Shown: one piece after another, positions 23,601 through 63,264 of the stretch
How positions within the stretch are numbered: the first letter of the stretch is position 1
How the letters are laid out: each line of letters opens with the position of its first letter
From: an uncultured Candidatus Saccharibacteria bacterium
GTDB taxonomy: Bacteria; Patescibacteriota; Saccharimonadia; Saccharimonadales; EFPC-124
Direction of reading: 5' to 3'
Length of the DNA stretch: 64,000 nt
Assembly (NCBI GenBank): GCA_964550035.1
Contig: CAZJVU010000001.1
Location: forward strand, 19,990 to 83,989
Made by a program: the position numbers and the translations under genes
Notes under the pieces: generated by a model
Databases searched by the model: none
Told to the model about the DNA's origin: nothing
What the model saw: only the letters and a program-made list of their open reading frames with translations

Positions 23601-26600
23601 AGTTCGCGATCGTGCCAGTGCCAGTGAACTTGGCGATTGTACCAGCGGTACCGCCAGGCGTTGTAACGCCGCCACCGATGCCCGTACAGTTGCCGACGCT
23701 CGTACAGATGTCGTAGGTGCCAGCAGTTGCGGTGAGGAGTCGGTAGGTAACGCTGGCGGTTGGATTCTGGAAGGCGAGCGTGGTGCTGCTAGCACCAGAT
23801 GTTGCGCTGATGGTGCTACTGGCGTTGCCCTGCAAGGTGAAGCTTTGACTTGTGGCACCGACGGTCAATGCGCCGGTCGGCGTGATGGTGTTGGCGGTGA
23901 GTGTGCCCGTAACGGTCGCGCCGCCGTTGAGGTTGGCCGCACCGGCAACGGCAAGCGTACCGGTGAAGTTGGCGGCGCTGCTGATCGTCTGGCCGTTAAT
24001 GGTTCCACTGAGCGTCAGCGCACCAGACGGTGCAACGGCAAATTTGCTCGTCCCAGCGAGCTGCAGGTCGAGCAGATTCCCAGACGCACCTGAGTTGGTA
24101 TTGTTTACCGTGAGCATTGCGGCGGTCGGCTGACTGGACGTGAGTGTCAGCTGGCCGAACGTTGGAGCGGCGGTGCTGTTGATGTTTTGGACGGTGTTGA
24201 CAATGCCGCCGGCCGAGGTGAAGTTCGTACCGTTGAACTGCGCAATACCCTTCTGGCTGGTCGATGCGTCGTTGACGGTGATGACGCCGCCCGCACCGCT
24301 CGAATTGGCGATGGTGATCGCGCCGGTCAAGCCGTCCAAGCTGGTCACCGCCGTGCTACTCGTGATGCACGTTGGGCAGGTCAAGTTACCGCTGGCATCG
24401 AGCACGAGTGGACCGCTGGCGCTGACCGCGAGGGTGCCGTTGGCATTAGGAATGGTGATGGCTTTGTTGCTGCCACTTGGTGTCGCGAAGATGAGCGAGT
24501 TTGTCGAAGCGCCGTTGGTGCTCGTCATGGTGACGGTGGCGCCTTGCAGGGTCAGATCTTGGCCGACGGCACCGATGGTCATGCTGGCGCTTGGCGTGAT
24601 CGTGTTGACCGCTAACCCGCCGCCGATCGTCACGACACTACCGTTATCGGTGATGATAGAGTCGCTGATTGTGTTACCGCCGCTGAATTTAGCGATCTTG
24701 TTGATTGTGCCGCCAGGTGTCGTGACGCCACCGCCAATACCGACGCAGTTACCGGCCGTCGTACAGACATCGTAGGTGCCGGCCGCGGCAGTGAGGAATC
24801 GATACATTACATCAGCGGTTGGCGTCTGGAAGGCAAGTGTTGTGCTGCTGCCACCGTTGGTGCTTGTGATGGTGCTGCTGGCATTACCCTGCAGGAGGAA
24901 GCTCTGGCTGGTGACGCCGACCGTCAGTGCGCCGCTTGGCGTGATCGTATTGGCGTTCAATGTGCCGGCCACTGTCGCGCCACCATTAAAGTTGGCTGCG
25001 CCTGCAACGGCGAGTGTGCCAGTGAGATTGGCGGCACTACTGATCGTTTGGCCGTTGACTGTGCCGCTCAGTGTCAGCGCTCCAGCTGGGTTGACCGCGA
25101 AGCGACTATTGCCGGTGAGCTGCAGGTCGAGCAAGTTGCCGGTCGCGCTCCCATTGGTATTGTTGACAGTCACCATATTGGCAGTTGCCTGAGCTGACGT
25201 GAGCGTCAGCTGGCCGAATGTTGGAGCCGCTGTTGCATCGATGTTCTGAACGGTGTTGATAGTGCCGCTGGTGGAGGTGAAGTTGGTCGCGTTGAATTGC
25301 GCAATACCTTTTTGACTGGTCGATGCGTCGTTGATAGTGATAGTGCTGCCCGACGCGCCCGCATTGGCAATAGTGAGCGAACCCGTCAGACCATTCAGAC
25401 TGCTAACACTGCCGCCTCCACCACCGCCAGTACAGCCGCTGATGTCGCAGATGACCGTGCCGCCGATGCGGTAGCTGTGGCCCGCGGTGATGTTAATATC
25501 GCCGTTGACCTCGAGTGGGTAGGCAGGGATGGTCGATTCGTTGATGGCGACGTGGTTGCTATTTGCTGCATTCAGGAAGATGGTACCCGTGCCGCCGGCG
25601 TCCAGCCAGAGGTTGTTCGAACCGCCATCGACGTGCAGGTTGCCGTCGTTGTAGATCTGCCCGATGACGCTGTTGGTTGTGCTGCTGAGGCTGATTGTGC
25701 TGGTGGGGCCATCATTCAGACTGAGTGTGCCACCCACAGCCAGGCCGCCGTTGATCGCAACATCGGTTGCGGTTTGGCTGAGGAGCGAATCGGCGAGCTG
25801 GTTTGTGCCACTGAACACCGCAATACGTCCGGCGGTTCCGCCCGATGACTGGACGTTGTTGGCGCTCGTTGGTGACTCGCCAAGCGTGATGTTGCCGCTG
25901 CCGTCATCGCTGACGGTCAGGTTGGTGCTGGCCGATGTGATGCTGATGATGCCAGTGTTGGTCAGTTGGCTGCCGTTCAGGCTCAAGCCGCCGCCAAGGG
26001 TGAGCGAGCCCGAAACGCCATTGATGCTCGTGACGGTTTGCGGATTGTTGGTGAGCGATACGAAACCACTGCCGTTATAGTAGTTCAGCTGGTTCGTCTC
26101 GCGGTCATAGTACATCTGACCGGCAACGCCGTTTTGTGGTTTTGCCGTTGGCGAAAGGACGAATGAGCTATTGACCTTTAGCTGTCCGTTGACGCTCAAT
26201 GTCCGTGACGGGTCGGTGCTGAGCTGGCCAGCAAGTGAGAGCTCGCCAAGGGGAATATTGAGGGTGTTGAACTGGCCGGCCGAGATGGCTTTGTCGGCCG
26301 AGCGCAGAGACGCATGGCTGACCAGTCGCATTGTGACGATCGCGCCGCCAACTAGGATTGCTAATATAATTGCGCCGACGAGAATCCACCGAGGCTTCAC
26401 GCGCCAGCCACGAAGTGGGCGTGCTGGCGACGTGGGAACCTGCTGCGGTGGGGTTTGGGGAGACTCGAGAGACGGTGTTGGCGATGCAGGAATAGGGGTG
26501 GGTGATGCTGGCGACTGTGCCGGTCGCTGGACATCAAAAGGCGTCGAAACGAGATCGCTCCGACTGCTAACATTTGGCACACCCCTAGTGTTTTGAGTTT

Positions 26601-26610
26601 CGTTTTCCAC
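17653..26610 (-). CDS. Giant (2,985 aa) membrane-anchored surface protein: tail-fibre-like repeats, Kelch propeller and C-terminal lectin-like modules
   Basis: Single uninterrupted ORF from a GTG start. It has a Pro-rich cytoplasmic N-terminus, one TM span (WILVGAIILAILVGGAIVTMRLV), and 5 repeats carrying ASTSQKG(I/L)(A/S)QF and CPTC. There are six ANGY(I/V/L/F)Y..GG Kelch-like blades. The tail contains DVAENYETAESVEPGDVVAF. Confidence 0.9.
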   Translation of the reverse strand: MENETQNTRGVPNVSSRSDLVSTPFDVQRPAQSPASPTPIPASPTPSLESPQTPPQQVPTSPARPLRGWRVKPRWILVGAIILAILVGGAIVTMRLVSHASLRSADKAISAGQFNTLNIPLGELSLAGQLSTDPSRTLSVNGQLKVNSSFVLSPTAKPQNGVAGQMYYDRETNQLNYYNGSGFVSLTNNPQTVTSINGVSGSLTLGGGLSLNGSQLTNTGIISITSASTNLTVSDDGSGNITLGESPTSANNVQSSGGTAGRIAVFSGTNQLADSLLSQTATDVAINGGLAVGGTLSLNDGPTSTISLSSTTNSVIGQIYNDGNLHVDGGSNNLWLDAGGTGTIFLNAANSNHVAINESTIPAYPLEVNGDINITAGHSYRIGGTVICDISGCTGGGGGGSVSSLNGLTGSLTIANAGASGSTITINDASTSQKGIAQFNATNFTSTSGTINTVQNIDATAAPTFGQLTLTSAQATANMVTVNNTNGSATGNLLDLQLTGNSRFAVNPAGALTLSGTVNGQTISSAANLTGTLAVAGAANFNGGATVAGTLNANTITPSGALTVGVTSQSFLLQGNASSTITSTNGGSSTTLAFQTPTADVMYRFLTAAAGTYDVCTTAGNCVGIGGGVTTPGGTINKIAKFSGGNTISDSIITDNGSVVTIGGGLAVNTITPSASMTIGAVGQDLTLQGATVTMTSTNGASTNSLIFATPSGSNKAITIPNANGTLAVSASGPLVLDASGNLTCPTCITSSTAVTSLDGLTGAITIANSSGAGGVITVNDASTSQKGIAQFNGTNFTSAGGIVNTVQNINSTAAPTFGQLTLTSSQPTAAMLTVNNTNSGASGNLLDLQLAGTSKFAVAPSGALTLSGTINGQTISSAANFTGTLAVAGAANLNGGATVTGTLTANTITPTGALTVGATSQSFTLQGNASSTISATSGASSTTLAFQNPTASVTYRLLTATAGTYDICTSVGNCTGIGGGVTTPGGTAGTIAKFTGTGTIANSIITDNGSTVTIGGGLAVNTIAPSAAMTVGSTAQNLTLQGASVSLTSTSGGITNSIVFATPSGSSKMVTVPNASGTLAVSASGPLVLDASGNLTCPTCVTSGGGGGGVAAVDSVDGLTGAITIANSSGAGSTITINDASTSQKGLAQFNSTNFSVSSGVVNTIQDIAVSSAPTFGRLTVTSSQASSAMLLINNTNSSGTGNLIDLQLNGTSKMSVNPAGNMTLVGTVNGQTIGSAANFTGSLTVAGAANLNGGATVAGTLTANTITPSSSLTVGATGQSFLLQGSATSTITATSGANTTSLAFQAPTANVTYRFLTAAAGTYDVCTTAGNCAGVGGGVTTPGGTTNKLAKFSGSQSIADSIITDNGSTVTIGGTLAVNTLTPTAALTVGSTSQNLTLQGASVNMTSTASGITNTLAFATPSGSNKTITIPNASGTLVVSASGPLAIDSSGNISCPTCSTGANVSSLNSLTGALTIANASGSGSIITIDDASTSQKGISQFNGTNFSVSTGIVNTVQNINTSAAPTFGQLTLTSNQATAAMLTVNNTNASATGNLVDLQLNGSSKFAVSPAGALTLSGTVNGQTISSSANFTGSLTVASTASLNGGATVTGTLTANTITPNSSLTVGATNQSYTLQGNASSTISATNGANTTSLAFQNPTASVTYRLLTTAAGTYDICTTAGNCAGVGGGVTTAGGTTNKIAKFTGSQAIGDSIITDNGSTVTIGGTLAVNTITPSAAMTVGATAQNLTLQGASVSLTSTSGGITNTLTFATPSSANKTITIPNASGTVAVSASGPLALDASGNLTCPTCATTGSGVTSLNSLTGALTLANAGTAGSTITINDASTSQKGIAQFNNTNFSASSGTINTIQNINTTAAPTFGQLTLTSSQASAAMLTVNNTNASGTGNLIDLQLNGSSKFSVNPAGNVTAAGTVNGQTISSAANFTGTLAVASTVTAGGLAVNGTATVKVDSATAFQVQNSSSQSLLTVDTSGNTISLLGNNSSALSTWTTTSALSAPGTSSSTPRVRGGAIAANGYIYQLGGVDSNGATVATVQYAKQNADGTLSSWTTNSNALPNSLRQFQPVVANGYIYVIGGRDNSNAASSASYYAKLNADGSIGTWSTGLPLPSPRFGSGTVYYNGYIYVIGGFNATPTAQTTVYSAKVNADGTLGSGSWTTNTALSSTTANVNAIVANGYVYLVGGFVGGSDADSISYSKIASSGTLGTWATTSSGVVPGGGDENFETYVANGYLYAVGGDAGSRVTAFPLTGTNGAPGTAQPLTTFPGGQVGEAGMAQANGYFYVIGGSNAVDGGGTVRNSVYYTSTPRVKIGGGLDLTTYGGANANETEGNTGGMLTAGNTNIVGSLNVQDKATFAQSVTMGDTLSVAGTAAFLNTTKFSGALVVGNSSVSDQYTLRVDATDNTLKLGGANVIGNASSGDTTDSGNNGQISASKFNSGSGGTLSSLKAYFEFVQASPSNHAKVAIYSDSSGTPGTLLSSATASSTVVTVGWNTLSLGTSVSLAANTNYWLAFNIDGSGTNYGVNTGETNSAFVNMTYGSNFPSSFSATSTGTDAFSVYGVYDTVSSPSATAGAISINSNNEVTVKPRFNSLTAFQVQNLAGSSVFSVDSSNNVAKATRMLVGTGTYSSSYSLSITDTAIPIGAYRQTSSTTADLLDLYSDVGGTANLKFKVQANGNIFTDGSTTIGTPADVAENYETAESVEPGDVVAFTDDRKLEKTTTPYTSKLAGVVSTNPGVILSGNTTGAPLALKGHVPVKVSAENGAIKPGDPLTASATKPGYAMKATGAGTTIGTALDSLASGTGTIELFVNLGYSDPSQSLQNNPTFGDINITGNATIKNLVVTDNLTTTQLTVNGHIISGGGAPTVSLGADACSGSSVSVSGTDTAGLITLTTGAGCTADGKLATVSFNKAFGATPRVTLTPASADAASVKSYVDSGSATTTNFSIATSSSSLNGSTVYKWYYQVIQ
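20650..25450 (-). repeat. About 4.5 tandem copies of a ~1.06-kb in-frame coding repeat inside the giant gene
   Basis: The marker TCGATGCGTCGT recurs at 21069, 22128, 23184, 24261 and 25320, giving periods of 1059, 1056, 1077 and 1059 bp. Shadow ORFs in the track (21080, 22142, 23195, 24140) repeat with the same period. Boundaries are approximate. Confidence 0.85.
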
Positions 26611-41007: not shown

Positions 41008-42441
41008 ATGGACAGTATGAGCCCCGAACTATCGGTTGCTGCCGCTCGTGGAGTAGACAGCACATTTGTTGATTACAAGCGCTTTGAAGGCGATGCTGAG
41101 CACCGTGCTGAGCAACGAGATCGATTTTTTAGGGGTGAAATGCTTTTCCCGGCTTACGATTACCCGCAACTCGACCGCCTCTATGACAGCAAGATCGACG
41201 AAGACACAGATGAAGAATCGACGTCTCCAACGTTTTTAATGGACCGCAAGGCTGATATTCAGCGCGCGGTGTATCGCTTGGAGCAGGCCCGAAGCACGGG
41301 TGAACTCAGCGAGTCTGAAGCTGAGCTCTATGCCGCATTTCACGAGACCCGCCTGAAGCGCATTATGCTTGTCGAGGCGGCGCGACGACTTGGTGTAGGC
41401 AGCGGTTCGGAAGATGAAGTTGCGCGTCAGGCATTTATAGACTTGAACCGCGAGCTCTTCGGCGAGTTCGACCACGAGGCGTACGCCGGCATGTTAGCGA
41501 CCGAGCAGCGCAATCTGGATGCATTCGAGCCACAGAACGAACAAGCCACTGCGGTTAAACGCGAGCTTGAGCAGTTCTTTGCCCGCAAGGACTTGGCCGG
41601 CAAAGTGGAGGAAGAACTCCTCGAACCTGAACTCATTGAGCAGCTGCAACGCTATATTCTCCGGCGCTACGAGACGGTGCTCGCGGTCGTGCCCGACGGT
41701 GAAGGTATTGTCTACGATGCCGAGCAATGCCGCGAGCTATTTGAGCGAGCGCTCGAAGCTGCAGGCCTAGCCGAGAAAGGCTGGAAGGTCATCAATGACC
41801 CCAAGAAGTCAAATCCTGCAACAGCTGCCAACAAACAGAAGATATCGCTTCCAGGAAAAATGGCCCGCACGCCCGATGAGCTAAAGCGCTTGATTATCCA
41901 CGAGATGGAAGTCCACGCTCGCCGCGGTCAGAACGGTAAAGATGCCGACGTAAAGCTCCTTCAGAAAGGCACGGCCGACTACGCTGATGTCGAAGAGGGG
42001 CTGGGTGTACTGCTGGAGTGCATTTTGGCTGGTAACATGGACAATCCATCATTTCATCGTGCTCGTGACCGATATCTGACTGCAGGCATGGCGCTTGGCT
42101 CCGGCGATACGCCACGCGATTCGCGCCAAACGTTCGAGGTTATGTGGCGGGTGCTTGCCGTCCGTGATGCACGTGACGGCGTGATCGACGACGATGTTCG
42201 AGAACGCGCCATGAAACAGGCTTACGCGCATGTCGAAAACGCTTTTCGCGGTACCAATTTTGCCATGCCTGGCATTATCTACGCCAAGCTCAAAATCTAC
42301 TATGAAGGCCTCGTAAAAAACGCTGACTTCTACAAACATCGTATCGATAACCTCGATGCGGCCTTCGATGATGCAATGTTGGGTAAAATTAACCACACCG
42401 ATCCACAAGAGGTAGAACACGCCCGAAACCTGGTGGCTTAG
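41008..42441 (+). CDS. DUF1704/QEGLA-family (MATCAP-like) putative metallocarboxypeptidase, paralog 1
   Basis: 477 aa. LIIHEMEVHARRGQNG (HExxxH) is followed about 20 aa later by VEEGLGVLLE. TATAAT lies 12 nt upstream of the ATG. Confidence 0.6.
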   Translation: MDSMSPELSVAAARGVDSTFVDYKRFEGDAEHRAEQRDRFFRGEMLFPAYDYPQLDRLYDSKIDEDTDEESTSPTFLMDRKADIQRAVYRLEQARSTGELSESEAELYAAFHETRLKRIMLVEAARRLGVGSGSEDEVARQAFIDLNRELFGEFDHEAYAGMLATEQRNLDAFEPQNEQATAVKRELEQFFARKDLAGKVEEELLEPELIEQLQRYILRRYETVLAVVPDGEGIVYDAEQCRELFERALEAAGLAEKGWKVINDPKKSNPATAANKQKISLPGKMARTPDELKRLIIHEMEVHARRGQNGKDADVKLLQKGTADYADVEEGLGVLLECILAGNMDNPSFHRARDRYLTAGMALGSGDTPRDSRQTFEVMWRVLAVRDARDGVIDDDVRERAMKQAYAHVENAFRGTNFAMPGIIYAKLKIYYEGLVKNADFYKHRIDNLDAAFDDAMLGKINHTDPQEVEHARNLVA

Positions 42442-42479: not shown

Positions 42480-43793
42480 GTGGATGGTGATAGACTGTTG
42501 CCGGCGATCGGGCTGCTCCAAGCATTAAGCCCTGACCCCGCCCGGCCAGATAACGAAATACTGACTTACCCCAGCCTTGCCCGAGCGGCACGTGATACTC
42601 GATCATTGAGCGAAGTACTGGTTGGAACGTTTTATGCAGCAGAGGACGAGCCTGCCGCGCAACTTGCGGCTGCGCAGCGATTGGCTGAATATGAGCTTAT
42701 AGAAACCGCAGCAGCGCTGCAGAATGCACAATCACCTGAACGTCAGCGTCAGTTGAGCGCGCAGTTTACCGGTGCATCGGTTGACCTTTTTGGTGCACCA
42801 GATGCGATGACGGCGGCGTTTTTGCTGGAGCAGCTTCTCACCGAGCTTTGTGTGTTGCAGACGAATTACGATGTCGACCCTGACCTACTCGACCACTTAC
42901 TGCTGACGTACGACGACGTGTTGCGTCACGGTCATAAGCAATACGAATACGTTTTGCCATTTGGCGCTGCTGATGCTGAGCGCGCGGCGCAGACATTTGG
43001 TGTGTTTCTTCGCGACTTTTATCCATTTTCGCTCAGTGTGTTTAAGGGCGATCCAGCGCAGGTGATCGATGCGGCAGGAATCGTAGAGCGATTTGAACTA
43101 GCGCTGGCGGAGCTGCAAACACACCGCGATGAGTTCTGGAAGGAATGGAAGGTGCTCGTGACGGACGACAGCTGTCTGTCGGTGAATCCGCTCGAGAAGC
43201 GTTTGATAGTCGGCTCGCACCGTGCTGGCGTGGAGCTGGGTGAACTCGAGGGGCTATTTGGCCACGAGGTATTGGTTCATGCCATGCGCGCTGGGAATGG
43301 CCAGCATTTGAGCGACGAATTTGAGCAGGGCTTGCCGGGGTATATCGACGCCGAAGAGGGGTTTGCCTGCTTTGTGGAGCATGCATTGAGCGGAAGTGCT
43401 CCACGCAAAATGTACGATCGCTATTTAGACGTTGCGCTTGCGCTGGGTACCATCGACGGCCAGCCGAGAGCGCGCCACGAACTGTTCGAGCTCGTCTATG
43501 CGCGCAATCTTGTCCGCGCCCAAGCGGTAGGCAAAAAAGCACGGCCAAGCGCTATCGAGCGCGAGAGCTGGGCGCATGTGAACCGTATCTTTCGTGGCAC
43601 GCTCGGCAATGACATCGTGGGCGTCTTCACCAAAGACATCGCGTATTATCAGGGGTACCAAAAGATGACGGCCTTTGTGATCGACGAGCTACAGGCCGGA
43701 ACACAGCCACACGAACTGTGGTCACTGCTGACACTTGGCAAGTACGACCCGACCGACGCTCTGCACATGCTCGAGCTCGCGCGAAACTCATAG
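42480..43793 (+). CDS. DUF1704/QEGLA-family (MATCAP-like) putative metallocarboxypeptidase, paralog 2
   Basis: 437 aa. LFGHEVLVHAMRAGNG (HExxxH) is followed by AEEGFACFVE. The GTG start is 8 nt after TATAAT (42466-42471). Confidence 0.6.
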   Translation: MDGDRLLPAIGLLQALSPDPARPDNEILTYPSLARAARDTRSLSEVLVGTFYAAEDEPAAQLAAAQRLAEYELIETAAALQNAQSPERQRQLSAQFTGASVDLFGAPDAMTAAFLLEQLLTELCVLQTNYDVDPDLLDHLLLTYDDVLRHGHKQYEYVLPFGAADAERAAQTFGVFLRDFYPFSLSVFKGDPAQVIDAAGIVERFELALAELQTHRDEFWKEWKVLVTDDSCLSVNPLEKRLIVGSHRAGVELGELEGLFGHEVLVHAMRAGNGQHLSDEFEQGLPGYIDAEEGFACFVEHALSGSAPRKMYDRYLDVALALGTIDGQPRARHELFELVYARNLVRAQAVGKKARPSAIERESWAHVNRIFRGTLGNDIVGVFTKDIAYYQGYQKMTAFVIDELQAGTQPHELWSLLTLGKYDPTDALHMLELARNS

Positions 43794-49028: not shown

Positions 49029-50474
49029 GTGCGTATACTGCGCGCGGTGATGCAGAGAACGGTTAATCGCACGACGCTAATAAGCTGGGGAAGCCTGGCG
49101 TTTTTGGGTGGGATTGGTGTGGCGAAGCTATGGGCTGTATCTGGGCTTATCGCGCTCGCGAGCGTTGGGCTGGTGGCACTCTGCTGGCGTCGACGGGCGT
49201 TTATCGCAGTGCCGGCAGTGGTGACGATAGGACTACTGCTCGGACTGTGGCGGGGCGGTGTGATTGCAAGTGAAGTAAAGGTCTACGATCGGCTAGTTGA
49301 CCGGAAGGTTTCGATAGGTGGTATCGTTATTCAGGATTCGACCTATGGAAGCAAGAAACAGATTGATTTTCTGGTCGACCACGTCCGCGTTGGCGAGCAG
49401 CGATTGCCAGGACAAGTGCGAGTCACGAGCTTTGACCCGATTGAGCCCAAGCAGGGTGACGAAATCGTTGCCACAGCGAAGGCCAAACCTGGGTTTGGAA
49501 ACTATCAGCTCGGTATGTACTACGCCAATGTGGAGGTGGTAGGGAAGGGCACGTCGTGGATTGTCGGGCTTCGTCGGCAGTTTAGTGCCGCTATTCTGAA
49601 TGTCGTGCCAGAGCCGCAGGCAAGTTTAGGGCTGGGATTTTTGCTGGGGATCAAATCGCAGCTGCCTGATTCGTTGAATGACCAGCTCAAGACCGTGGGG
49701 TTGACGCATATTGTGGTGGCGTCGGGATATAATCTCACCATTTTGGTCCGGGCGGCACGCAGGCTGCTCGCAAATCGCTCAAAGTTTCAGGCAACGTTTG
49801 CCGCGGTTGGGTTGATGGTCGGGTTTGTGGGCGTCACTGGGCTCAGCCCGAGCATGAGCCGCGCGGCGCTGGTGACGGCGCTGTCACTTGCGGCGTGGTA
49901 CTATGGGCGCGCTATTCACCCGGTCGTGTTGTTGCTTTTCTCGGCTGCGATTACAGGAGCGTGGAATCCGGTGTATGTTTGGGGCGACGTCGGTTGGTAT
50001 CTGTCGTTTACAGCGTTTGCTGGCGTGATGCTTGGCGCGCCACTGCTCCAGAAACGACTATACGGTGAGCGAGAGCCACCGCAGATTGTGCAGATTGTAC
50101 TTGAGACACTCTGCGCGGAGCTTACCACGCTGCCGCTTACGCTCTTTGTTTTTGGAAGTGTGTCGGTGGTGGCGCTGGTGAGCAATGTACTCGTGACGCC
50201 GCTTGTACCGGTCGCGATGCTGGCAACGTTTGTCGGCGGTGTAGCGGCGGTATTCTTGCCGGGTGTTGGCGCATGGTTGGCGTTGCCCGCACATGTCGTG
50301 CTGACCTATATGACATCGATGGTCGCCTGGCTGGCGAGTATTTCGTGGGCCAAACAGACAGTAACCCTGACGCTGCTTGGGTTTGTATTGGCGTATGCCT
50401 ATCTGTGTATAATTGGCGTCGTTATGCAGCGTCGTATTCGCTACAACTACCTCAGTAAAAGTGTCGTCGAATGA
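49029..50474 (+). CDS. comEC: DNA internalization channel ComEC/Rec2 (competence domain only)
   Basis: Polytopic membrane protein. GLTHIVVASGYNLTILV matches the ComEC competence-domain motif (compare HLLAISGLH). The start is GTG 49029 or ATG 49050. Confidence 0.8.
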   Translation: MRILRAVMQRTVNRTTLISWGSLAFLGGIGVAKLWAVSGLIALASVGLVALCWRRRAFIAVPAVVTIGLLLGLWRGGVIASEVKVYDRLVDRKVSIGGIVIQDSTYGSKKQIDFLVDHVRVGEQRLPGQVRVTSFDPIEPKQGDEIVATAKAKPGFGNYQLGMYYANVEVVGKGTSWIVGLRRQFSAAILNVVPEPQASLGLGFLLGIKSQLPDSLNDQLKTVGLTHIVVASGYNLTILVRAARRLLANRSKFQATFAAVGLMVGFVGVTGLSPSMSRAALVTALSLAAWYYGRAIHPVVLLLFSAAITGAWNPVYVWGDVGWYLSFTAFAGVMLGAPLLQKRLYGEREPPQIVQIVLETLCAELTTLPLTLFVFGSVSVVALVSNVLVTPLVPVAMLATFVGGVAAVFLPGVGAWLALPAHVVLTYMTSMVAWLASISWAKQTVTLTLLGFVLAYAYLCIIGVVMQRRIRYNYLSKSVVE

Positions 50475-55234: not shown

Positions 55235-55729
55235 CTAGCGTGCCAAGCTGCGGCGCACACGCTGTTGGAATTGTGGGAGCGCCCAGCTTCCAGGCATCCG
55301 GTTGGAATACCAGAACGATATTTGGTCGTGCTGGTCGCTGATTGTTCGCATCCATAGCATGAACATGACAGGCAGACCATGCTTCTGCATTTGTTGGGTG
55401 CTCACTGTCCACAGAACCTTATCGACATCTCCCTCCGCCTCCGCCTCTTCGGGTGATCGCAGCCGGGGTGTTCTCCTCCCGAGTTTGCTTGGTGGAAAGG
55501 TGAGCTGCAGTGATTGTCGCTGCGCTGACCTTAGCGGTAGGGCCTCGGGCGGCAGTAGCTGGGCATACGGCATGTCCCCTTCTGCATACAGAGCCAGATA
55601 GGAGAGAGCCATCACTTCGGTACTGCCGTTGGGCCCGAGCAATATAGCACTGTGGTAAAGCTCCGGAGAAGAAGCGTCGGAGAGGTACCGCATAAGCCGC
55701 TCATGTCGTTGTTTGCCCATATTAGACAT
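55235..55729 (-). CDS. High-GC cassette: 164-aa protein, tandem paralog 1, hypothetical
   Basis: ATG follows AGGAGAAGGCA. Shares RHE.L.RY, SYLALYAEGDM.Y, KH.LP..F..W and WAL..F.Q..R..LAR blocks with 55883..56371. Confidence 0.6.
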   Translation of the reverse strand: MSNMGKQRHERLMRYLSDASSPELYHSAILLGPNGSTEVMALSYLALYAEGDMPYAQLLPPEALPLRSAQRQSLQLTFPPSKLGRRTPRLRSPEEAEAEGDVDKVLWTVSTQQMQKHGLPVMFMLWMRTISDQHDQISFWYSNRMPGSWALPQFQQRVRRSLAR

Positions 55730-55882: not shown

Positions 55883-56371
55883 TTAGCCGCGCGCCAGACA
55901 GTTCCGAATGCCCTGCTTGAAACGAGCCAGTGCCCAATCACTAGGCACCATCTCCGGGCACCACAACGCTACCTGCTCGTGTCCTCCGTAGGTGGTCAGT
56001 GCCCAAACGACGAAGATCGCCGGAAGGTCGTGTTTCTCGGTTTCTTCGGTCGCGAGGTTCCAGTTCAGGTCATCGAGGTTAACCAAGGAGCGTCGGCCCT
56101 GTCGCGTTCCGGCTATACGCGCCTGAGGGCTTATGGGCTGCGCAGGGAGCGTTAGCCCTAGCGCTTGCTGCTGAGCTTCTCGTTTTTGCACGGCAACAGG
56201 CTGAATTCGGAGGTACGACATGTCGCCTTCGGCATAGAGCGCCAAGTAGGAGATGGTCTCCACCTTGACACCGTGTGGACCTTTCAAGACCGTCTTTTTG
56301 TAAATCCTGTCGAATTCGCCACGGTAATACCGCACCAGCTGTTCGTGGCGCCGTTCGCCCCTGTTGGGCAT
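55883..56371 (-). CDS. High-GC cassette: 162-aa protein, tandem paralog 2, hypothetical
   Basis: ATG follows GAGGAGGACAGC. Paralogous to 55235..55729. The upstream sequence AGTATATCGTAAAAGTA.TA.TGGTTT is also duplicated. Confidence 0.6.
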   Translation of the reverse strand: MPNRGERRHEQLVRYYRGEFDRIYKKTVLKGPHGVKVETISYLALYAEGDMSYLRIQPVAVQKREAQQQALGLTLPAQPISPQARIAGTRQGRRSLVNLDDLNWNLATEETEKHDLPAIFVVWALTTYGGHEQVALWCPEMVPSDWALARFKQGIRNCLARG

Positions 56372-56435: not shown

Positions 56436-56846
56436 TTACTGGTTTCGGCTGGTCTTTGTGTAGTCGGCTTCGTGTTCGAGATTCGCGCGAAGGGTGTAGC
56501 TTTTGCATTTGCCGTCAGTACAATCTTTGGGATCATAGCTGTAGTCGGAGTTTTGTTCGCCAATAGCAACGTCTTCTGGATCTTTGAGCGTACTTGGGTC
56601 AAGACCTTTCAGCTGGTCGGCGGTAAGCTTCTGGGGGTACGTGTGATTAGCCGCGTAATAGACGTCCTCAAGATTGTAGTAGATGGCATTAATGGCCGTT
56701 TTACGAGCTGAGTCACGAGCTTGTACCTCGAGATCACGTTTCTGAACGTAGAAAACAGTACCAGCAATCAGCACAAAAACAATTGCGATAATAAGTTCCA
56801 GGACGGTAAAGCCGCGCTGCGATGATGTAGTCCTCACTTGAAGCAT
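56436..56846 (-). CDS. Type IV pilin-like protein (prepilin N-terminal cleavage/methylation domain)
   Basis: QRGFTVLELIIAIVFVLIAG is the class III signal: G/F cleavage site, E at +5 and a hydrophobic helix. 136 aa. Confidence 0.85.
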   Translation of the reverse strand: MLQVRTTSSQRGFTVLELIIAIVFVLIAGTVFYVQKRDLEVQARDSARKTAINAIYYNLEDVYYAANHTYPQKLTADQLKGLDPSTLKDPEDVAIGEQNSDYSYDPKDCTDGKCKSYTLRANLEHEADYTKTSRNQ

Positions 56847-56912
56847 CTCCTTTTATATTCATTATACCCATAATCTCCTAAAAGTGAGCGGTGTTTGTTC
56901 TATAATAGAACT

Positions 56913-57536
56913 ATGCTACTTCCGCGAGATCGATTGTTGAGCCTGCCGATCATGAGTTTGCAGACGGGTACACAGATTGGTACGGCTGTGGGCCATATCG
57001 TTGACCCTAGGCGTCTTAATATTGTGGCGTTTTACTGCGAAGGGCCGCTTATCGATTTTAGCCCCGCGATCTTACACGTCACGGATATTCGAGAGTTTAG
57101 CAGCATTGGACTTATTGTCGACAGCGCCGATAACCTCATGCCGCCTGATGATTTGGTGCGGCTCAAAGAAATCCTCGACTACCACTTTGAGCTTGAGGGC
57201 AAACAGGTTATCGAAGAGAATGGGCACAAGCTGGGAAAGGTTGGGAGCTATACAGTCGAGAGCGAGTCGTTCTATATTATGAAGTTGCAAGTCAAGCCCA
57301 CGCTTCTGCAGAGTTTTGGTCAATCAGAGCTACTCATCGACCGTACGCAAATTAGCGAGATAAACGACAGACAGATTGTCGTACGTCGCGCAACAGTACA
57401 TGATGAAGAAAAGACCGCGCGTTTTGCGCCAATCCCACCTATAGACAACCCGTTCCGCAAGGCACCACATGGCATGCCCGAGGCGCACCAGTCGCACAAG
57501 AAAAAGAAAACAGTCGAAGACTTACACGGAGCGTAG
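56913..57536 (+). CDS. PRC-barrel domain protein (two PRC-like modules)
   Basis: 207 aa from ATG 56913, 6 nt after TATAAT (56901-56906), so probably leaderless. SLPIMSLQTGTQIGTAVGHIVDP and GKQVIEENGHKLGKVGSYTVE resemble PRC-barrel cores. Confidence 0.45.
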   Translation: MLLPRDRLLSLPIMSLQTGTQIGTAVGHIVDPRRLNIVAFYCEGPLIDFSPAILHVTDIREFSSIGLIVDSADNLMPPDDLVRLKEILDYHFELEGKQVIEENGHKLGKVGSYTVESESFYIMKLQVKPTLLQSFGQSELLIDRTQISEINDRQIVVRRATVHDEEKTARFAPIPPIDNPFRKAPHGMPEAHQSHKKKKTVEDLHGA

Positions 57537-57635: not shown

Positions 57636-58250
57636 TTAATCTTCGATGCTCACTTCCGCTAGTGTACTTTTTATAACATCGTAGCTAAACCCCTGTCGGG
57701 CGAGATATTGCATAAGTTTTTGCTCGTCTTGATAGCGGGTTTGGCGGCGTTTCTTGGTAATAATCTCACGTAGCGCTTCGTGCTCATCATAGTCGCCGTC
57801 GCCAGTAATGGCCTGCTCGATAAGCTCGCTGGCAACTCCTTTTTGGATAAGTTCGGCTTGGAGGCGACGTTTACTGACGGGTTTGGTGAGCTGCCGTGCA
57901 CGCACCCAACTTTTGGCGAATGCGGCGTCGTCTAAGTATCCCCGCGATTCTAGCTTTTGGATGATCTGGTCGCCCATTCCCGGGTCGGCTTTCTTGCGCC
58001 AAAAATAATCACGCACTTCACGAATTGACCGAGGACGGATCATGACATAGTTCATGACCCGCTCGAATAATTTGCCGTAGTCACTGGCTTTTTTGAATTC
58101 TTCGAGCTGTTGCTCGCCGATCTCCATGCCGCTGTGGAGTCTCAAATCAAGAAGTTGGGACTGGGCCAGGCTAAATGAGTACTTGCCGTCAAGATACACC
58201 GAGACCCGCTCGGTGTTCTTGACTTGGGCTTTAATCGCTGTGATTTTCAT
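57636..58250 (-). CDS. recX: RecA regulator RecX
   Basis: 204 aa downstream of recA. VSVYLDGKYSFSL..., LESRGYLDDAAFAKSWV and repeated three-helix modules are typical of RecX. Confidence 0.88.
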   Translation of the reverse strand: MKITAIKAQVKNTERVSVYLDGKYSFSLAQSQLLDLRLHSGMEIGEQQLEEFKKASDYGKLFERVMNYVMIRPRSIREVRDYFWRKKADPGMGDQIIQKLESRGYLDDAAFAKSWVRARQLTKPVSKRRLQAELIQKGVASELIEQAITGDGDYDEHEALREIITKKRRQTRYQDEQKLMQYLARQGFSYDVIKSTLAEVSIED

Positions 58251-58352
58251 AGGCCAGCTTGATCGCTCGCTTATAGAGATTGGGCAAGTTGAGGAGGGAT
58301 AGCGTGTCCCAGGTATCAGTCATGATTCGTCCTGGTTCGGTAATCATGCTGC

Positions 58353-59405
58353 CTACAGCGCGTTCTCGGCGGCCACCTTGTCGCGGACGAGTTTGTCTAT
58401 CTCGCTCATGACGTCGGCATGCTCCTTGAGGTACACCTTCGCCGCTTCGCGACCCTGACCGATCTTGCCGTCTTTATAATCGAACCAAGCGCCAGACTTA
58501 CCAACCACGCCATGCTGGACGGCAAGGTCGAGAACGTCTCCACTCGCCGAGATGCCTTCATTGTACATGATGTCGAATTCGGCTTGGCGGAATGGCGGCG
58601 CGATCTTGTTCTTGACGACCTTCACTTTGGTGCGGTTGCCGATGACCTCTTCGCCGACCTTTATCTGGCCAGTACGACGGATGTCCAAACGAACAGAGGC
58701 GTAGAACTTCAGCGCGTTACCGCCGGTAGTAGTCTCTGGGTTGCCGAACATGACACCGATCTTCATGCGAATCTGGTTGATGAAAATGATAGTCGCTTTG
58801 CTCTTGTTGATGATGCCGGTCAGTTTACGCAGCGCCTGACTCATCAAACGTGCCTGAAGGCCCATGTGGCTGTCGCCCATTTCGCCTTCGATCTCTGCCT
58901 GAGGAACAAGCGCCGCAACAGAGTCGACAACGATGAGATCGACGGCATTACTGCGAACCAGTGTCTCAACGATCTCGAGTGCTTGTTCGCCGTTGTCCGG
59001 CTGCGAAATCAGCAAGTTGCTCGTATCAACGCCTAGCTTTTTGGCGTAGACGGGGTCAAGCGCGTGCTCGGCGTCGATGAACGCTGCCGTGCCACCGTTG
59101 CGCTGCACTTCGGCGATTGCATGGAGTGTCAATGTCGTCTTACCGGAGCTTTCTGGGCCGTAGATTTCGATAATGCGACCCTTCGGATAGCCGCCACCGA
59201 GTGCCAGGTCCAAGCTCAGCGCGCCCGAAGAGACGAGCTCTACATCCGCTTTATGCGATTCGCCCAGCTTCATGATTGCGCCGTTACCAAACTGCTTCTC
59301 AATCTGTTCCATTGCGAGGCCAAGTGCCTTCAGTTTTCCAGTGTCAGCGGTTGGGGCGGCGGCTTTTTCGGTCTGTTTGTCTTCAGCTTTTTTCTTATCG
59401 GCCAT
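58353..59405 (-). CDS. recA: Recombinase RecA
   Basis: [23 protein letters not shown], Walker [11 protein letters not shown], and the L1/L2 regions. 350 aa. Confidence 0.99.
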
Positions 59406-59604: not shown

Positions 59605-61008
59605 ATGAAGTACTTACCCCGAATCACTGGCCTATGCCTCGCTCTACTCGTGGCAGTTTTAAGTAGTAGCGTTCCAGTAATTGCAGCAGAAGAATCGCCC
59701 AAACATATTATTTTCGCAGAGGTCTCGCCAGAGGCTAAAGACTCGGCAAGTAAAGAATATATCGTTCTGTATAATCCCAATGCAGTAGCGGTAGATGTCG
59801 CGGGCTGGGCTGTGCAGTATAGGAGCGCGAGCCACAAACCTGATGACTCGAGCGGTTGGACGACGAAGGCTATTATTGGTTGTCAATCAACAAAGCAGTC
59901 GGACTGTACGAATCCGGCTACGACTACTATTTCTCCTGGTGAGACGCTGCGGCTCTCGAGTTTTGAGACTGGCGATGGTGTTGTGCCACTTGCCTCAGGA
60001 ATGGCTACGAGTGGTGGTGAAGTACGACTTGTGGCGACCCTTGGCGATAGCCAGATGCTTCAAGATATGGTGGGCTACGGTGACGCTGCGGACTACGAAG
60101 GGAAGGCTGCAATATCCCCAAAGGCTGGGCAAAGTATCGTGCGGGCGCATGACGAGACAGGGGCGTTCATAGACACCGACCATAACGATACTGATTTTGT
60201 GCTATCACCAGATGAAGACGACGACGTACCGCCGCCAGCGCAAGAGCCGGGTGATGAAAATACCGCTCCAGGCCAAGGAGCGGGAGATCCTCCAGTAATC
60301 TACCAGTCGGCTGAAATCACAGAGGTATTTCCGGATCCGGCGACGCCACAGCTCGATAGCGCTGATGAGTTTATAGAGCTGTACAATCCTTATGCAGAAG
60401 AGCTCAGCCTGAAAGGGTATGTGCTTATGACCGGCGCCGACTGGACGCACAAATACACCATAGGCGATGTAGCCGTTGATCCGTACGGATATATAGCACT
60501 TACCTCAGCGCAGACGCATCTCTCGCTGAGTAACACAGGCAGCGGCGTACGACTCTATGACCCCTCGGGTAATCTACTGTCTGAAGCGCCATCGTACGGA
60601 AAGGCGCAAACAGGGAGCAGCTGGGCAAAGAACACCAATGGTCAATGGATTTGGACGACGACGCCAACCCCGGGCGCTCAAAATGCCATTGATACTCCGG
60701 CGCAAACACCTCCAAGTCCCAAGGCGGCCGCCAGCTCAGCAGCCAAAAAGTCGACGACAAAGGCTGCGAGTGCGCCAAAAGCCACAAAGGCTTCGTCGTC
60801 CAAGGCGGTGACCTCTGCGGTAAAAGGTGCAGCAACAACGGCGCACCCTGGCACTGGCGGGGCCGATGGGAATCAGATCGGCATGTGGGCGCTTGCAGGA
60901 GCAGGCACACTTGGCGTTGGGTACGCGCTGTATGAGTACAGGCAGGAAATCGGTGGATTTGCGAGGCGCAGGTGGCAGACAGTAGCGGGCCTTATGGGGA
61001 GAAAGTAA
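59605..61008 (+). CDS. Secreted, C-terminally anchored protein with two lamin-tail (LTD) domains
   Basis: Has a signal peptide. Two LTD-like cores (IIFAEVSPE...EYIVLYNPNAVAVDVAGWAV and ITEVFPDP...EFIELYNPYAEELSLKGYVL), a Pro/Ala/Ser-rich linker, and a C-terminal TM span. Confidence 0.65.
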   Translation: MKYLPRITGLCLALLVAVLSSSVPVIAAEESPKHIIFAEVSPEAKDSASKEYIVLYNPNAVAVDVAGWAVQYRSASHKPDDSSGWTTKAIIGCQSTKQSDCTNPATTTISPGETLRLSSFETGDGVVPLASGMATSGGEVRLVATLGDSQMLQDMVGYGDAADYEGKAAISPKAGQSIVRAHDETGAFIDTDHNDTDFVLSPDEDDDVPPPAQEPGDENTAPGQGAGDPPVIYQSAEITEVFPDPATPQLDSADEFIELYNPYAEELSLKGYVLMTGADWTHKYTIGDVAVDPYGYIALTSAQTHLSLSNTGSGVRLYDPSGNLLSEAPSYGKAQTGSSWAKNTNGQWIWTTTPTPGAQNAIDTPAQTPPSPKAAASSAAKKSTTKAASAPKATKASSSKAVTSAVKGAATTAHPGTGGADGNQIGMWALAGAGTLGVGYALYEYRQEIGGFARRRWQTVAGLMGRK

Positions 61009-61011
61009 GCC

Positions 61012-61485
61012 CTACTTATTAAAACTTTCTTTCACATAAGGATGATCGGGATTGGTTTCTTGGTACGCCTTGAGGGTAAATCCATGACAGGGCACGTCAC
61101 CCCCGTTACCTGTACAGTTGTCTGGCGTGGTTACATACTGGTACTGAGTGGCTGCCGATGCATTTCCACTTTGAACTGTGCCGTTGCTGCTGTCGTAGAG
61201 CCAATCGTTAGTGAAGCCCGGTAGGTTAGTGGCTATGAAGCCGTTCGGTGATGTGTCAGTCAGCTGCATGATTGTCGGGTAGCTGCCATTGCAGGTGTCT
61301 TTATTACTCCAGCAGTTCTCGAGTTGCTTAGAGATATTATCGATATCGCTACGGCGAGTGGCGTCGCGGGACTTGGCTTGCACGGTTTGGAGGCTATTAA
61401 GAATGAGTACCGCCAGGATCCCCAAAACGACGAGTACAATAACGACCTCTATCACCGTAAAGCCCGTAGATTGTTTGTGCTTCAT
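61012..61485 (-). CDS. Type IV pilin-like protein
   Basis: From ATG 61485: MKHKQSTGFTVIEVVIVLVVLGILAVL, a class III signal with E+5. 157 aa. The start is 1 nt after the PilB-like stop. Confidence 0.85.
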   Translation of the reverse strand: MKHKQSTGFTVIEVVIVLVVLGILAVLILNSLQTVQAKSRDATRRSDIDNISKQLENCWSNKDTCNGSYPTIMQLTDTSPNGFIATNLPGFTNDWLYDSSNGTVQSGNASAATQYQYVTTPDNCTGNGGDVPCHGFTLKAYQETNPDHPYVKESFNK

Positions 61486-61486
61486 G

Positions 61487-62851
61487 CTACACCTCTGTCG
61501 CGCTAGCAACTTCATCAACGCTCGTGAGGCCAAGCAGTACCTTCACTAAACCGTCCATCTGCATGGTCGGCATACCCTGTTGGACTGCTTGATCTTGGAT
61601 AACTTGCGCCGTGGCGTTTCCGAGAATGAGCTGTTGAATGTTTTCATTCATCTCGAGAACTTCATGAATTCCTAGGCTGCCTTTATACCCAGTGTGACTG
61701 CACTCGGCGCAGCCGTCCTTCGAGGCACGGTAGAGGTTAGTGATCGGACCTTGATCGGTGCTTGATGCGCCAACGACGACTTTTTCTTCCAGCGCTTGCT
61801 GCTCTAGTTCGCGAACGCGCTGAAGCTGGGCGGCGGTACGGATGCCAAGGCTCTTCAGGATGCCGATCATTTCTTGCTCGCTTGGTGCGAAGATTTGCTT
61901 GCAGTTCTCGCAGAGCCGACGCACAACACGCTGACCGACGACTGCTTGAACGGTGTGTGCCACGAGATACGGTTCAATACCCGAGGCGAGTAGATAGCTC
62001 AGCGCGCCAGTGGCGTTGCCGGCATAAAGTCCCGCAAGGAGAAGTCGGCCAGAGAGCGCGCCCTCGATGCCCAAGCGGGCTGTCTCGGTATCGTGGATCG
62101 AGCTGACGAGCAAGACGTTGGCATCTTGTCTCAGGAGTGTTCGTAAACCGTTTGGAAAGGTGAGGCCAACCTTGACGTTCACCTGTGTTTGAGTCGCCCC
62201 GGGAATCCGGTATGAGATAGGGTCTTCGATAGTAGCAATACTGAGTTGTGGTGAACTCAGGTGGCTCAGCATACTGAACGCGCCTTCGGCTTGGCCGGAG
62301 TCGTGTGGTCCAGCGAGAAGCACAAGACCGCGCGGTTTGGTAATGGCGGCGCTTATTGCCTTGAGGTTTGGCCCCCAGTAGCCAAGCTCTTGAAGCTTCG
62401 GCGCTTTACCGCTGAGGCTCGTGAGTTGCACGACAGCCTTTTCGCCATCTTCGACGGGAATTGTGGCAACCTGTAGCTTGTAGGGCTTGCCCTGAACGGT
62501 CACTGTTGTAGCGGCTATGCGCGGAAGCGTTTCTTCTTCGTCGATTGGCACATGCACCAGAAGCTTCAGCCCGGCAACAAGCACGGGCGCAACAGCGCGT
62601 GGTAATGTCTGCGCCTCGGTAAGCACGCCGTCGATACGGTGGCGAATGCGTACGTCTTCGGCACGTGGCTCGATATGGATAGTGGCTGCGCCGGCGCGTA
62701 TTCCAGCCGCCAAAATAGAGGCAACAAGCTCAGTTACTTCGGTCGGCGTGTTCTTCTTGCTACGCGAGCTTGACGCAAGATCACCGATGGAGATCTTTTC
62801 CGCTCGTTTGAGAAGCTTGCTCAGTGGTGCGCTCGTGGTCCCTTTTGCCAT
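61487..62851 (-). CDS. PilB/GspE-family protein with degenerate ATPase motifs (putative pseudo-ATPase)
   Basis: Colinear with GspE/PilB and retains the tetracysteine cluster (CENC...CAEC). The catalytic motifs are degenerate: Walker A is GPHDSGQA (canonical GPTGSGKT), Walker B region is VSSIHD (VGEIRD), and His-box is LAGLYAG (STLHTN). Confidence 0.75.
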   Translation of the reverse strand: MAKGTTSAPLSKLLKRAEKISIGDLASSSRSKKNTPTEVTELVASILAAGIRAGAATIHIEPRAEDVRIRHRIDGVLTEAQTLPRAVAPVLVAGLKLLVHVPIDEEETLPRIAATTVTVQGKPYKLQVATIPVEDGEKAVVQLTSLSGKAPKLQELGYWGPNLKAISAAITKPRGLVLLAGPHDSGQAEGAFSMLSHLSSPQLSIATIEDPISYRIPGATQTQVNVKVGLTFPNGLRTLLRQDANVLLVSSIHDTETARLGIEGALSGRLLLAGLYAGNATGALSYLLASGIEPYLVAHTVQAVVGQRVVRRLCENCKQIFAPSEQEMIGILKSLGIRTAAQLQRVRELEQQALEEKVVVGASSTDQGPITNLYRASKDGCAECSHTGYKGSLGIHEVLEMNENIQQLILGNATAQVIQDQAVQQGMPTMQMDGLVKVLLGLTSVDEVASATEV

Positions 62852-62913
62852 AGTTGCTTACTATTGTAAAGAATTTTGGTCGGTAATGCTAATGGTTTTA
62901 TTTGCGGCTTAGC

Positions 62914-62973: not shown

Positions 62974-63264
62974 GTGACGCTCTATCCACCACAAATCAGC
63001 GTGGAAGACGGGAAGCGCCTGAAGATCTACACGTTCGGCGGCGTGGCTCGTGACAGGTGGAACGCCGTGAAAGAGGCGGCTCAAGCCGTCCCGGGTGTGA
63101 CTCGCATCGATGGCGACTTCGAGTCGGGAGTTGCTATGTGGGTGGGCTTCGGAGATGGCGCCGACCAGGAGGCTGCCGACGCCAGAATTCTGGCGCTCAT
63201 CCGCGCCGAGCTCCCCGACGACGTACCGTTCCGGAGGATTCCCTTTGAGGGTTTCGCGGACTGA
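62974..63264 (+). CDS. High-GC cassette: 96-aa acidic soluble protein, hypothetical
   Basis: GTG start after GAGGAGGAATA. High GC3. No family recognised. Confidence 0.55.
   Translation: MTLYPPQISVEDGKRLKIYTFGGVARDRWNAVKEAAQAVPGVTRIDGDFESGVAMWVGFGDGADQEAADARILALIRAELPDDVPFRRIPFEGFAD

Follow-up and report, generated by a model that had tools for sequence, protein, structure and literature searches.

A catalytically degenerate PilB maintained beside a prepilin gene at the recA locus of Saccharibacteria

For their epibiotic life Saccharibacteria require type IV pili, and the ATPase that extends them is usually regarded purely as a motor. Here we describe psB, a gene for a catalytically degenerate protein of the PilB type, found in a stretch of 64,000 nucleotides (nt) from an uncultured Candidatus Saccharibacteria bacterium (contig CAZJVU010000001.1, positions 19,990 to 83,989; hereafter the window). 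The gene lies on the reverse strand, directly upstream of a prepilin gene:

61487 to 62851, reverse strand: psB, catalytically degenerate PilB-type protein of 454 residues, comprising the N2 and C-terminal domains and the zinc tetracysteine but no N1 domain
62863 to 62892, reverse strand: promoter-like site TTAGCA-18-TACAAT directly upstream of the psB start, a consensus match only
61486 to 61495, reverse strand: junction of psB and the pilin gene, with GAGG (61495-61492) inside the last psB codons, the stop codon TAG, one base (61486) and the pilin start codon ATG (61485-61483)
61012 to 61485, reverse strand: partner prepilin of 157 residues, with the cleavage motif MKHKQSTG/FTVIE (N_methyl, PF07963, E = 4e-6; TIGR02532)

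The open frame of psB is intact over its 454 codons and ends with TAG at 61489-61487, and the pilin starts 1 nt past this stop. Both facts had been stated in a preliminary description of this DNA and can be read directly from the sequence. The GAGG stands 6 nt 5′ of the pilin ATG, a layout that is compatible with translational coupling of the two genes. In nine loci of the psB clade, the gap between psB and the pilin measures 1-26 nt. The prepilin peptidase motif G/F..E is kept across the clade both in this pilin and in a second one encoded nearby (see below), which implies that a working processing and assembly system acts on them.

The psB protein matches the Pfam family T2SSE (PF00437) over residues 38-448 (E = 1.2e-73; 248 bits against a cut-off of 24.9), and its best sequence matches among solved structures are GspE (4pht) and PilF (5oiu), both with E of about 1e-73, in agreement with the PilB/GspE assignment made earlier. 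Its AlphaFold2 model (predicted local distance difference test 86.7; predicted template modelling score 0.78) retains the bilobed fold of N2 and C-terminal domain, and the top Foldseek matches of this model are PilF (5oiu) and PilB (5tsh), with E of about 1e-40 and target-normalised template modelling scores of 0.83-0.91. Overall, psB is 31-34% identical to PilB, PilF and GspE (5tsh, 5oiu, 4pht) and shares with them the bilobed fold and the tetracysteine zinc site, whereas its catalytic residues are replaced and the N1 domain is absent. The zinc motif consists of CENC at residues 314-317 and CAEC at residues 381-384, and none of its cysteines (C314, C317, C381 and C384) varies among the 76 aligned sequences; the retention of this motif and of GYKG, noted previously, is also seen in our alignments. 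On the other hand, the claim that psB aligns end to end with extension ATPases does not hold, since only the N2 and C-terminal domains are covered. The N1 domain (GSPII/MshEN, PF05157), which spans about 140 residues in relatives of 592-605 residues, is missing from psB in the alignment and gives no Pfam match in it; psB begins within the N1-N2 linker, and tblastn finds no N1 remnant upstream of the gene.

At the level of subfamilies, psB scores below every NCBIfam equivalog cut-off (GspE 325/630, PilB 304/676, TfpB 262/850, ComGA 144/300). A PilT/PilU identity was considered, as psB is N1-less like PilT, but was rejected: the pilT_fam score is 71 versus 319, the zinc motif is present, and PilT structures match with E of only about 1e-13, versus 1e-73 for GspE and PilF. 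Membership in the ComGA, TfpB, PilT and DotB groups was in each case rejected by score.

The catalytic motifs of psB are lost. Walker A, GPTGSGKS in canonical proteins, reads GPHDSGQA (residues 181-188), with Lys replaced by Gln and Ser/Thr by Ala; this loss extends over the aligned clade with minor variants, one member retaining the Lys but not the Ser/Thr. Walker B has changed from VGEIRD to VSSIHD (residues 249-254, in the context LLVSSIHD), so that both the Gly and the catalytic Glu are replaced, and most clade members carry VSN at this site. The His box TGHL..STLHTN has become SGRL..AGLYAG (residues 267-278) and both of its His are replaced; across the clade the first is Arg in all members, the second Tyr, His or Gln. 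Alignments to solved structures and to relatives confirm these three motifs as the preliminary description had listed them, but that list was incomplete. Indeed, both Arg fingers of the N2 domain are gone as well (DERRVPQDGRF to DEEETLPRIAA), and the Asp box (EDPVE to EDPIS) keeps E209 and D210 but has lost its second Glu. Judged from these residues, psB cannot be a normal P-loop ATPase. Because every ATP-binding and ATP-hydrolysing residue appears to be lost, it would be unable to power pilus extension, and a role as an ATP-driven extension motor is very unlikely.

The degenerate state is widely shared. A search of 5.8 billion proteins gave 447 matches, 120 of which were listed. Among the matches listed, about 37 full-length orthologs form a tight psB group (447-457 residues, 65-89% identity, PF00437 as the only domain) drawn from many independent assemblies (JGI, ENA, NCBI and Logan). 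Beyond this group, identity falls to 47-49%, with proteins of 595 residues that contain an N1 domain. The degenerate motifs are present in every aligned member of the clade (24-34 sequences), and canonical motifs occur only in relatives at or below 47% identity among the species-representative loci aligned; a check for close orthologs with canonical motifs found none, all those at 65-89% identity sharing the degenerate ones. The substitutions have in turn become fixed: H183, D184, S250 and R269 are invariant, and Q187 and A188 are present in at least 90% of the clade. Across 34 aligned orthologs, 147 columns are invariant, and 40 sites are conserved in both the canonical and the degenerate group yet differ between them, including H183, D184, Q187, A188, S250, N251 and R269. 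In the nine loci with DNA, the non-synonymous divergence (dN) of psB is 0.09-0.29, the synonymous divergence (dS) exceeds 2, and their ratio omega is at most about 0.04-0.11, within the range of the neighbours tsaE and recX and beside 0.06-0.15 for the pilin; since dS is saturated (>2 or undefined) in almost all pairs, omega is to be read as an upper bound only. Within the clade, mean identity is 72% for psB, 77% for TsaE, 71% for RecX and 93% for RecA. Together with the pilin constantly found 1-26 nt downstream, the low omega and the fixed replacements support the view, already put forward in the preliminary description, that psB is a maintained pseudo-enzyme, which is under purifying selection and is neither a decaying gene nor an artefact.

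The distribution of constraint along the protein has also changed. We compared the dead clade with canonical proteins at matched overall divergence (mean pairwise identity of 0.72-0.73 in both sets). In the catalytic core (residues 161-312), mean pairwise identity is 0.71 in the dead clade versus 0.85 in the canonical set, whereas the helical insert that separates the two Cys pairs (residues 318-363) shows the opposite pattern, with 0.78 versus 0.33. The N2 domain is essentially unchanged (0.77 versus 0.79). These regional identities show that selection has left the active site and now acts on the N2 domain and on a surface of the zinc subdomain.

The clade members examined share a fixed gene order: rny-tsaD-tsaE(-small open reading frame)-psB-pilin, a convergent lamin-tail-domain (LTD) gene, recA-recX, a PRC-barrel gene, a second pilin gene and ruvB-ruvA-ruvC-yebC-comEC. 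In the window, the genes that follow the partner pilin are:

59605 to 61008, forward strand: LTD protein of 467 residues, a conserved convergent neighbour that starts with a signal-like segment and has a hydrophobic segment at its C-terminus
57636 to 59405, reverse strand: recA (58353-59405) and recX (57636-58250), invariant linkage partners of the psB locus
56895 to 57536, forward strand: PRC-barrel protein, 43% identical to the last gene of the PilB2 operon of Nanosynbacter TM7-008
56436 to 56846, reverse strand: second prepilin of 136 residues with the motif G/FTVLE, ortholog of the recA-adjacent PilJ of TM7x-type loci

As to the neighbours themselves, the LTD protein contains two LTD stretches, 3 nt separate its stop codon from that of the convergent pilin gene, and it adjoins tsaE and recX in other Saccharibacteria. 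An open reading frame (ORF) of 96 residues without an assigned family lies between tsaE and psB (62974-63264, forward strand) and has counterparts with 53% identity in some clade members; it was rejected as part of the psB module, being absent from several others (L006, L090, L092). The ComEC protein (49029-50474, forward strand) has just 481 residues, with Competence and DUF4131 domains and no match to a metallo-beta-lactamase domain, and is linked to yebC-ruvCAB and to the pilin-recA region in every related locus. In loci L003 and L098, recA is split into two ORFs, and in L098 ymdB and ruvA are split as well (L003, 12856-13490; L098, 2752-3556, 7337-8381 and 11420-11996); these splits are probably assembly or long-read frameshift errors and not biology.

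The origin of psB can be read from the loci of related genomes. We scanned species-representative genomes, with figures given for the best 80 loci, and a metagenome scan with psB alone returned 3 loci; flanking DNA of the loci looked up comprised 10 kb on each side. At least 64 loci are of the Saccharibacteria type (L007-L070), and most of them encode, between the same markers as psB, a canonical PilB of 590-613 residues with the motifs GPTGSGKS, VGEIRD and TGHL..STLHT. The canonical operon reads PilB-PilC-PilM-PilN-PilO in Nanosynbacter TM7-008 (L008) and PilB-PilC-pilins-PilM-PilN-PilO in L054 and L086, and the psB locus is syntenic with all three (tsaD-tsaE, recA-recX, PRC, second pilin, ruvABC, comEC). 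Pfam and tblastn searches detected PilC, PilM, PilN or PilO neither in the 64-kb window nor, over 10 kb, in any degenerate locus. The closest canonical protein, P0042 of locus L086, is 47% identical to psB, and L086 is the sister lineage in a tree of RecA, RecX and TsaE. In the PilB tree the psB clade is monophyletic (100/100), with a stem of 0.56 substitutions per site versus a crown depth of 0.22.

A second pilus locus has been described in Nanosynbacter lyticus TM7x, comprising PilC2, PilB2, PilM2/N2/O2, RecAX and the essential pilin PilJ; its PilB2 is reported to have both Walker boxes (A and B) conserved, and the thin pili depend on it (PMC11623550). Our psB occupies the same chromosomal slot as TM7x PilB2, beside tsaE, recA-recX and the recA-adjacent pilin. 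It is 45% identical to the PilB of TM7-008, a close relative of TM7x with a syntenic locus, and has in common with it the N2 and C-terminal domains and the zinc motif; unlike psB, the TM7-008 protein has 592 residues, an N1 domain, canonical motifs and PilC/M/N/O downstream. In canonical recA-linked operons, the first pilin after pilC is orthologous to the partner pilin (36-37% identity in L086 and L054). The second prepilin has an identity of 41% with the pilin of TM7-008 and of 63% with that of L086. By sequence and position, psB is thus best described as an in-place descendant and positional ortholog of the recA-linked extension ATPase (PilB2 of TM7x). The term paralog, used previously, is therefore less apt. 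In the psB lineage, the operon has lost pilC, pilM, pilN, pilO, the minor pilins and the N1 domain, leaving the dead PilB and the first pilin as a tight two-gene operon; the PRC-barrel gene is a remnant retained from the ancestral locus.

Loss of catalysis is not confined to the psB clade. We searched 1.84 billion cluster representatives with a psB-clade profile and examined the top 150, in which the clade itself is a single cluster at 50% identity. Of the 112 representatives with a single core, 38 carry a replacement at one or more of the five core catalytic residues, and the patterns are mosaic; the N1 domain is absent in 25 of these degenerate clusters, and 13 have an N-terminus of N1 length. 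Five degenerate clusters were looked up in their genomic context (P0134, P0136, P0137, P0143 and P0155). Flanking DNA was sufficient for four of them, which all lie in the same recA/recX/tsaE/ruv slot with a prepilin directly downstream that is 25-42% identical to the pilin of the window; none of these four has PilC/M/N/O within 10 kb. The fifth, P0136, is on a contig of only 4 kb, where a prepilin of 45% identity follows beyond one intervening small gene, so that it is plausibly a further member of the same module; taking all five, identity to the partner pilin spans 25-45%. The recA-linked P0143 (592 residues; L097, 6174-7952) retains the MshEN N1 domain together with the motifs GPNGSGRS and SGRL, and its pilin is separated from it by a promoter-like spacer of 165 nt. 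It is an intermediate architecture and shows that catalysis can be lost while N1 is kept.

The same search of representatives returned proteins of about 1000 residues (P0121-P0132, P0135 and P0138) with two complete tandem PilB cores. In most of them Walker A, Walker B and the His box are canonical in both cores, and they look like natural fused double motors.

Trees of the linked genes indicate that the degenerate loci do not share one origin. In the RecA, RecX and TsaE tree they group with different canonical lineages, and three quartets each receive 100/100: window and L086 versus L099 and L054; window and L086 versus L097 and L048; L099 and L054 versus L097 and L048. A grouping of all degenerate loci has 0/100. 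Similarity among the PilB proteins follows a corresponding pattern, psB being closest to L086, P0143 to L048 (50%; N1 domain likewise) and P0137 to a second locus type, with P0155 ambiguous. The PilB protein tree, on the other hand, places 32 of 36 degenerate representatives in one cluster; we set aside a common origin on this basis, as the linked-gene trees and best matches disagree with it and the clustering can be attributed to long-branch attraction or convergence. Horizontal spread of one degenerate cassette is disfavoured, though not excluded for every cluster. From these comparisons we count at least three independent origins of a degenerate recA-linked PilB. Moreover, the same replacements occurred in parallel in independent lineages (S206A in 8 of 8, H269R in 7 of 8, G250S in 5 of 8), and T274G/S and T277A/S are likewise recurrent across them. 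This recurrence points to a selected end state of an empty nucleotide pocket rather than to random drift.

What could such a protein do? We lean towards the view that psB is a conserved in-place pseudo-ATPase with a non-catalytic action on its partner pilin, with the pilus machine itself encoded elsewhere. Death of the same motor in several lineages, with the gene kept beside one pilin, suggests that the protein probably has a second, ATP-independent job. In this reading, psB would act on or for the pilin as an adaptor, a priming or licensing factor or a regulator, using the preserved N2 domain and the newly constrained surface of the zinc-subdomain insert, for which residues 318-363 would be the obvious docking candidate. 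The active pilus machine and the prepilin peptidase would be encoded elsewhere in the genome. Locus one (PilB1, PilT, PilC1, PilD) is reported to be conserved in most Saccharibacteria compared, including the lineages G5 and G6, which are without locus two, and the authors of the TM7x study suggested that the first machine might let through pilins belonging to the second system (PMC11623550). Given these reports and the retained pilin motifs, we infer a non-catalytic partnership of psB with the pilin and with this other machine. As a more tentative extension, which we regard as possible but somewhat doubtful, the dead PilB and its one pilin might form a convergent, self-sufficient module with a conserved ATP-independent activity (licensing, priming, chaperoning or regulating) towards that specific pilin. 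If so, the module would enable the one pilus motor that remains to assemble a second filament or a recA/comEC-linked DNA-uptake pseudopilus, and this activity would be what selection keeps once the dedicated machine has been discarded.

Several observations weigh against a non-catalytic partner function. First, psB evolves faster than canonical PilB, with 72% versus about 90% identity at a TsaE identity of 70-80%, where the canonical side comprises only 4 pairs. Second, the trees are neighbour-joining trees built on few genes. Third, N1 is the presumed domain by which PilB docks to PilM and the stator (PMC11656802), and with N1 lost, psB would need another surface to engage the pilus platform. 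Finally, canonical pilB, pilT, pilC and pilD were not found in the 64-kb window, and we infer their presence in the same cell.

Some precedents exist for parts of this picture. In the archaeal ArlH/FlaH, a RecA-fold protein with impaired catalysis regulates ArlI/FlaI, the motor ATPase of a type IV filament; ArlH/FlaH, however, belongs to a KaiC-like and not a PilB-like family and still binds ATP. Accessory members of the PilB/PilT family that modulate a pilus driven by another member are known from Acinetobacter baylyi, where the two extension ATPases PilB and TfpB serve one pilus, and from the PilT-dependent PilU; unlike psB, both TfpB and PilU are treated as ATPases in the review that describes them (PMC11656802). 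A PilB function independent of pilus assembly is found in Myxococcus xanthus, in which a Walker A mutant of PilB still signals for exopolysaccharide production (PMC5544727; PMC11656802). That case, though, concerns a second role of an active enzyme seen in laboratory mutants, whereas the dead state of psB is natural and fixed.

Among the alternatives, psB could be a poison or brake subunit that mixes into, or competes with, active hexamers of extension or retraction ATPases and so damps or switches pilus dynamics instead of aiding its pilin; mixed hexamers had been named in the preliminary description as one example of a possible role. Its N2 domain, through which the subunits of PilB hexamers pack together, is under the same constraint as in active enzymes, and interactions between pilus ATPases are documented (PilB-TfpB, PilT-PilU; PMC11656802). 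We nevertheless consider this unlikely: it leaves unexplained why one pilin gene is kept directly downstream in each independent lineage, and the closest other PilB type of Saccharibacteria is less than about 39% identical among the best 80 loci, which makes mixed rings less probable.

An equally unlikely alternative is a role in DNA uptake, in which psB and its pilin, the second pilin, the LTD protein, recA-recX and comEC would make up a minimal competence pseudopilus with a recombination neighbourhood, psB serving as a cytoplasmic scaffold that links the pilin or ComEC to RecA. All loci examined show the linkage to recA-recX, ruvABC and comEC without exception, the TM7x authors take an essential pilin next to recA as a hint of DNA uptake (PMC11623550), and one homolog of the partner pilin weakly matches ComP_DUS (E = 2.4e-4). 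This match, however, is under the Pfam cut-off, the ComGA model reaches only 144 of 300 bits, and the recA/comEC linkage was inherited from the ancestral full pilus locus and need not reflect function.

It is still less probable that psB binds or hydrolyses nucleotide at a non-canonical site. The P-loop glycines G181 and G186, the Asp-box residues E209 and D210 and also D243 are retained, and the Lys-Ser/Thr pair of Walker A survives in some other degenerate clusters, but in the psB clade the Lys, the Ser/Thr, the catalytic Glu, both His and both Arg fingers are replaced, an Asp lies inside the P-loop, and constraint on the catalytic core has fallen from 0.85 to 0.71. That psB is a functionless relic, its frame open only for translation of the pilin or the gene still decaying, is very improbable: the close stop and start with GAGG in the last codons and the pace faster than that of active PilB would fit, but omega is at most about 0.1 along the whole gene, the full-length orthologs reach down to 65% identity, the 147 invariant columns and the constraint gained in the insert call for selection, the loss recurs with parallel substitutions, and L097 keeps its degenerate PilB though the pilin there has a promoter-like spacer of its own.

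In the literature searched we found no natural degenerate PilB, and a 2024 review of PilB and its cofactors applies the word degenerate solely to the GGDEF domain of FimX (PMC11656802). The proteins described here thus appear to represent a pseudo-ATPase version of the pilus extension motor that has arisen repeatedly, without a match in that literature. An ATPase-dead PilB that is under purifying selection, has a constant pilin neighbour and has at least three separate origins speaks for a second, motor-independent function, and degenerate PilBs would be natural separation-of-function variants with which to find it. The replacements S206A, H269R, T274G and T277A offer testable predictions on how an empty nucleotide pocket is stabilised. 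There is also a consequence for annotation: psB orthologs are labelled PilB or GspE/PulE family protein in public records, and metabolic reconstructions would take such genes as evidence for a second functional pilus that is probably absent from these lineages.

A few other features of the window may be mentioned. Two tandem paralogous ORFs of 164 and 162 residues (55235-55729 and 55883-56371, reverse strand; MSNMGKQRHERLMRYL... and MPNRGERRHEQLVRYY...) lie between the second pilin gene and a bPH-domain gene; they have no Pfam match, and one or two such genes are found in related loci. A giant ORF of 2985 residues (17653-26610, reverse strand), with weak Kelch-repeat matches only (E = 2.4e-9), may encode a large surface protein. 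Finally, two adjacent genes (41008-42441 and 42480-43793, forward strand) encode proteins that match the MATCAP family (PF08014, microtubule-associated tyrosine carboxypeptidase-like; E = 1e-16 and 7e-15), and the pair is followed by an ORF of 616 residues with no Pfam match.

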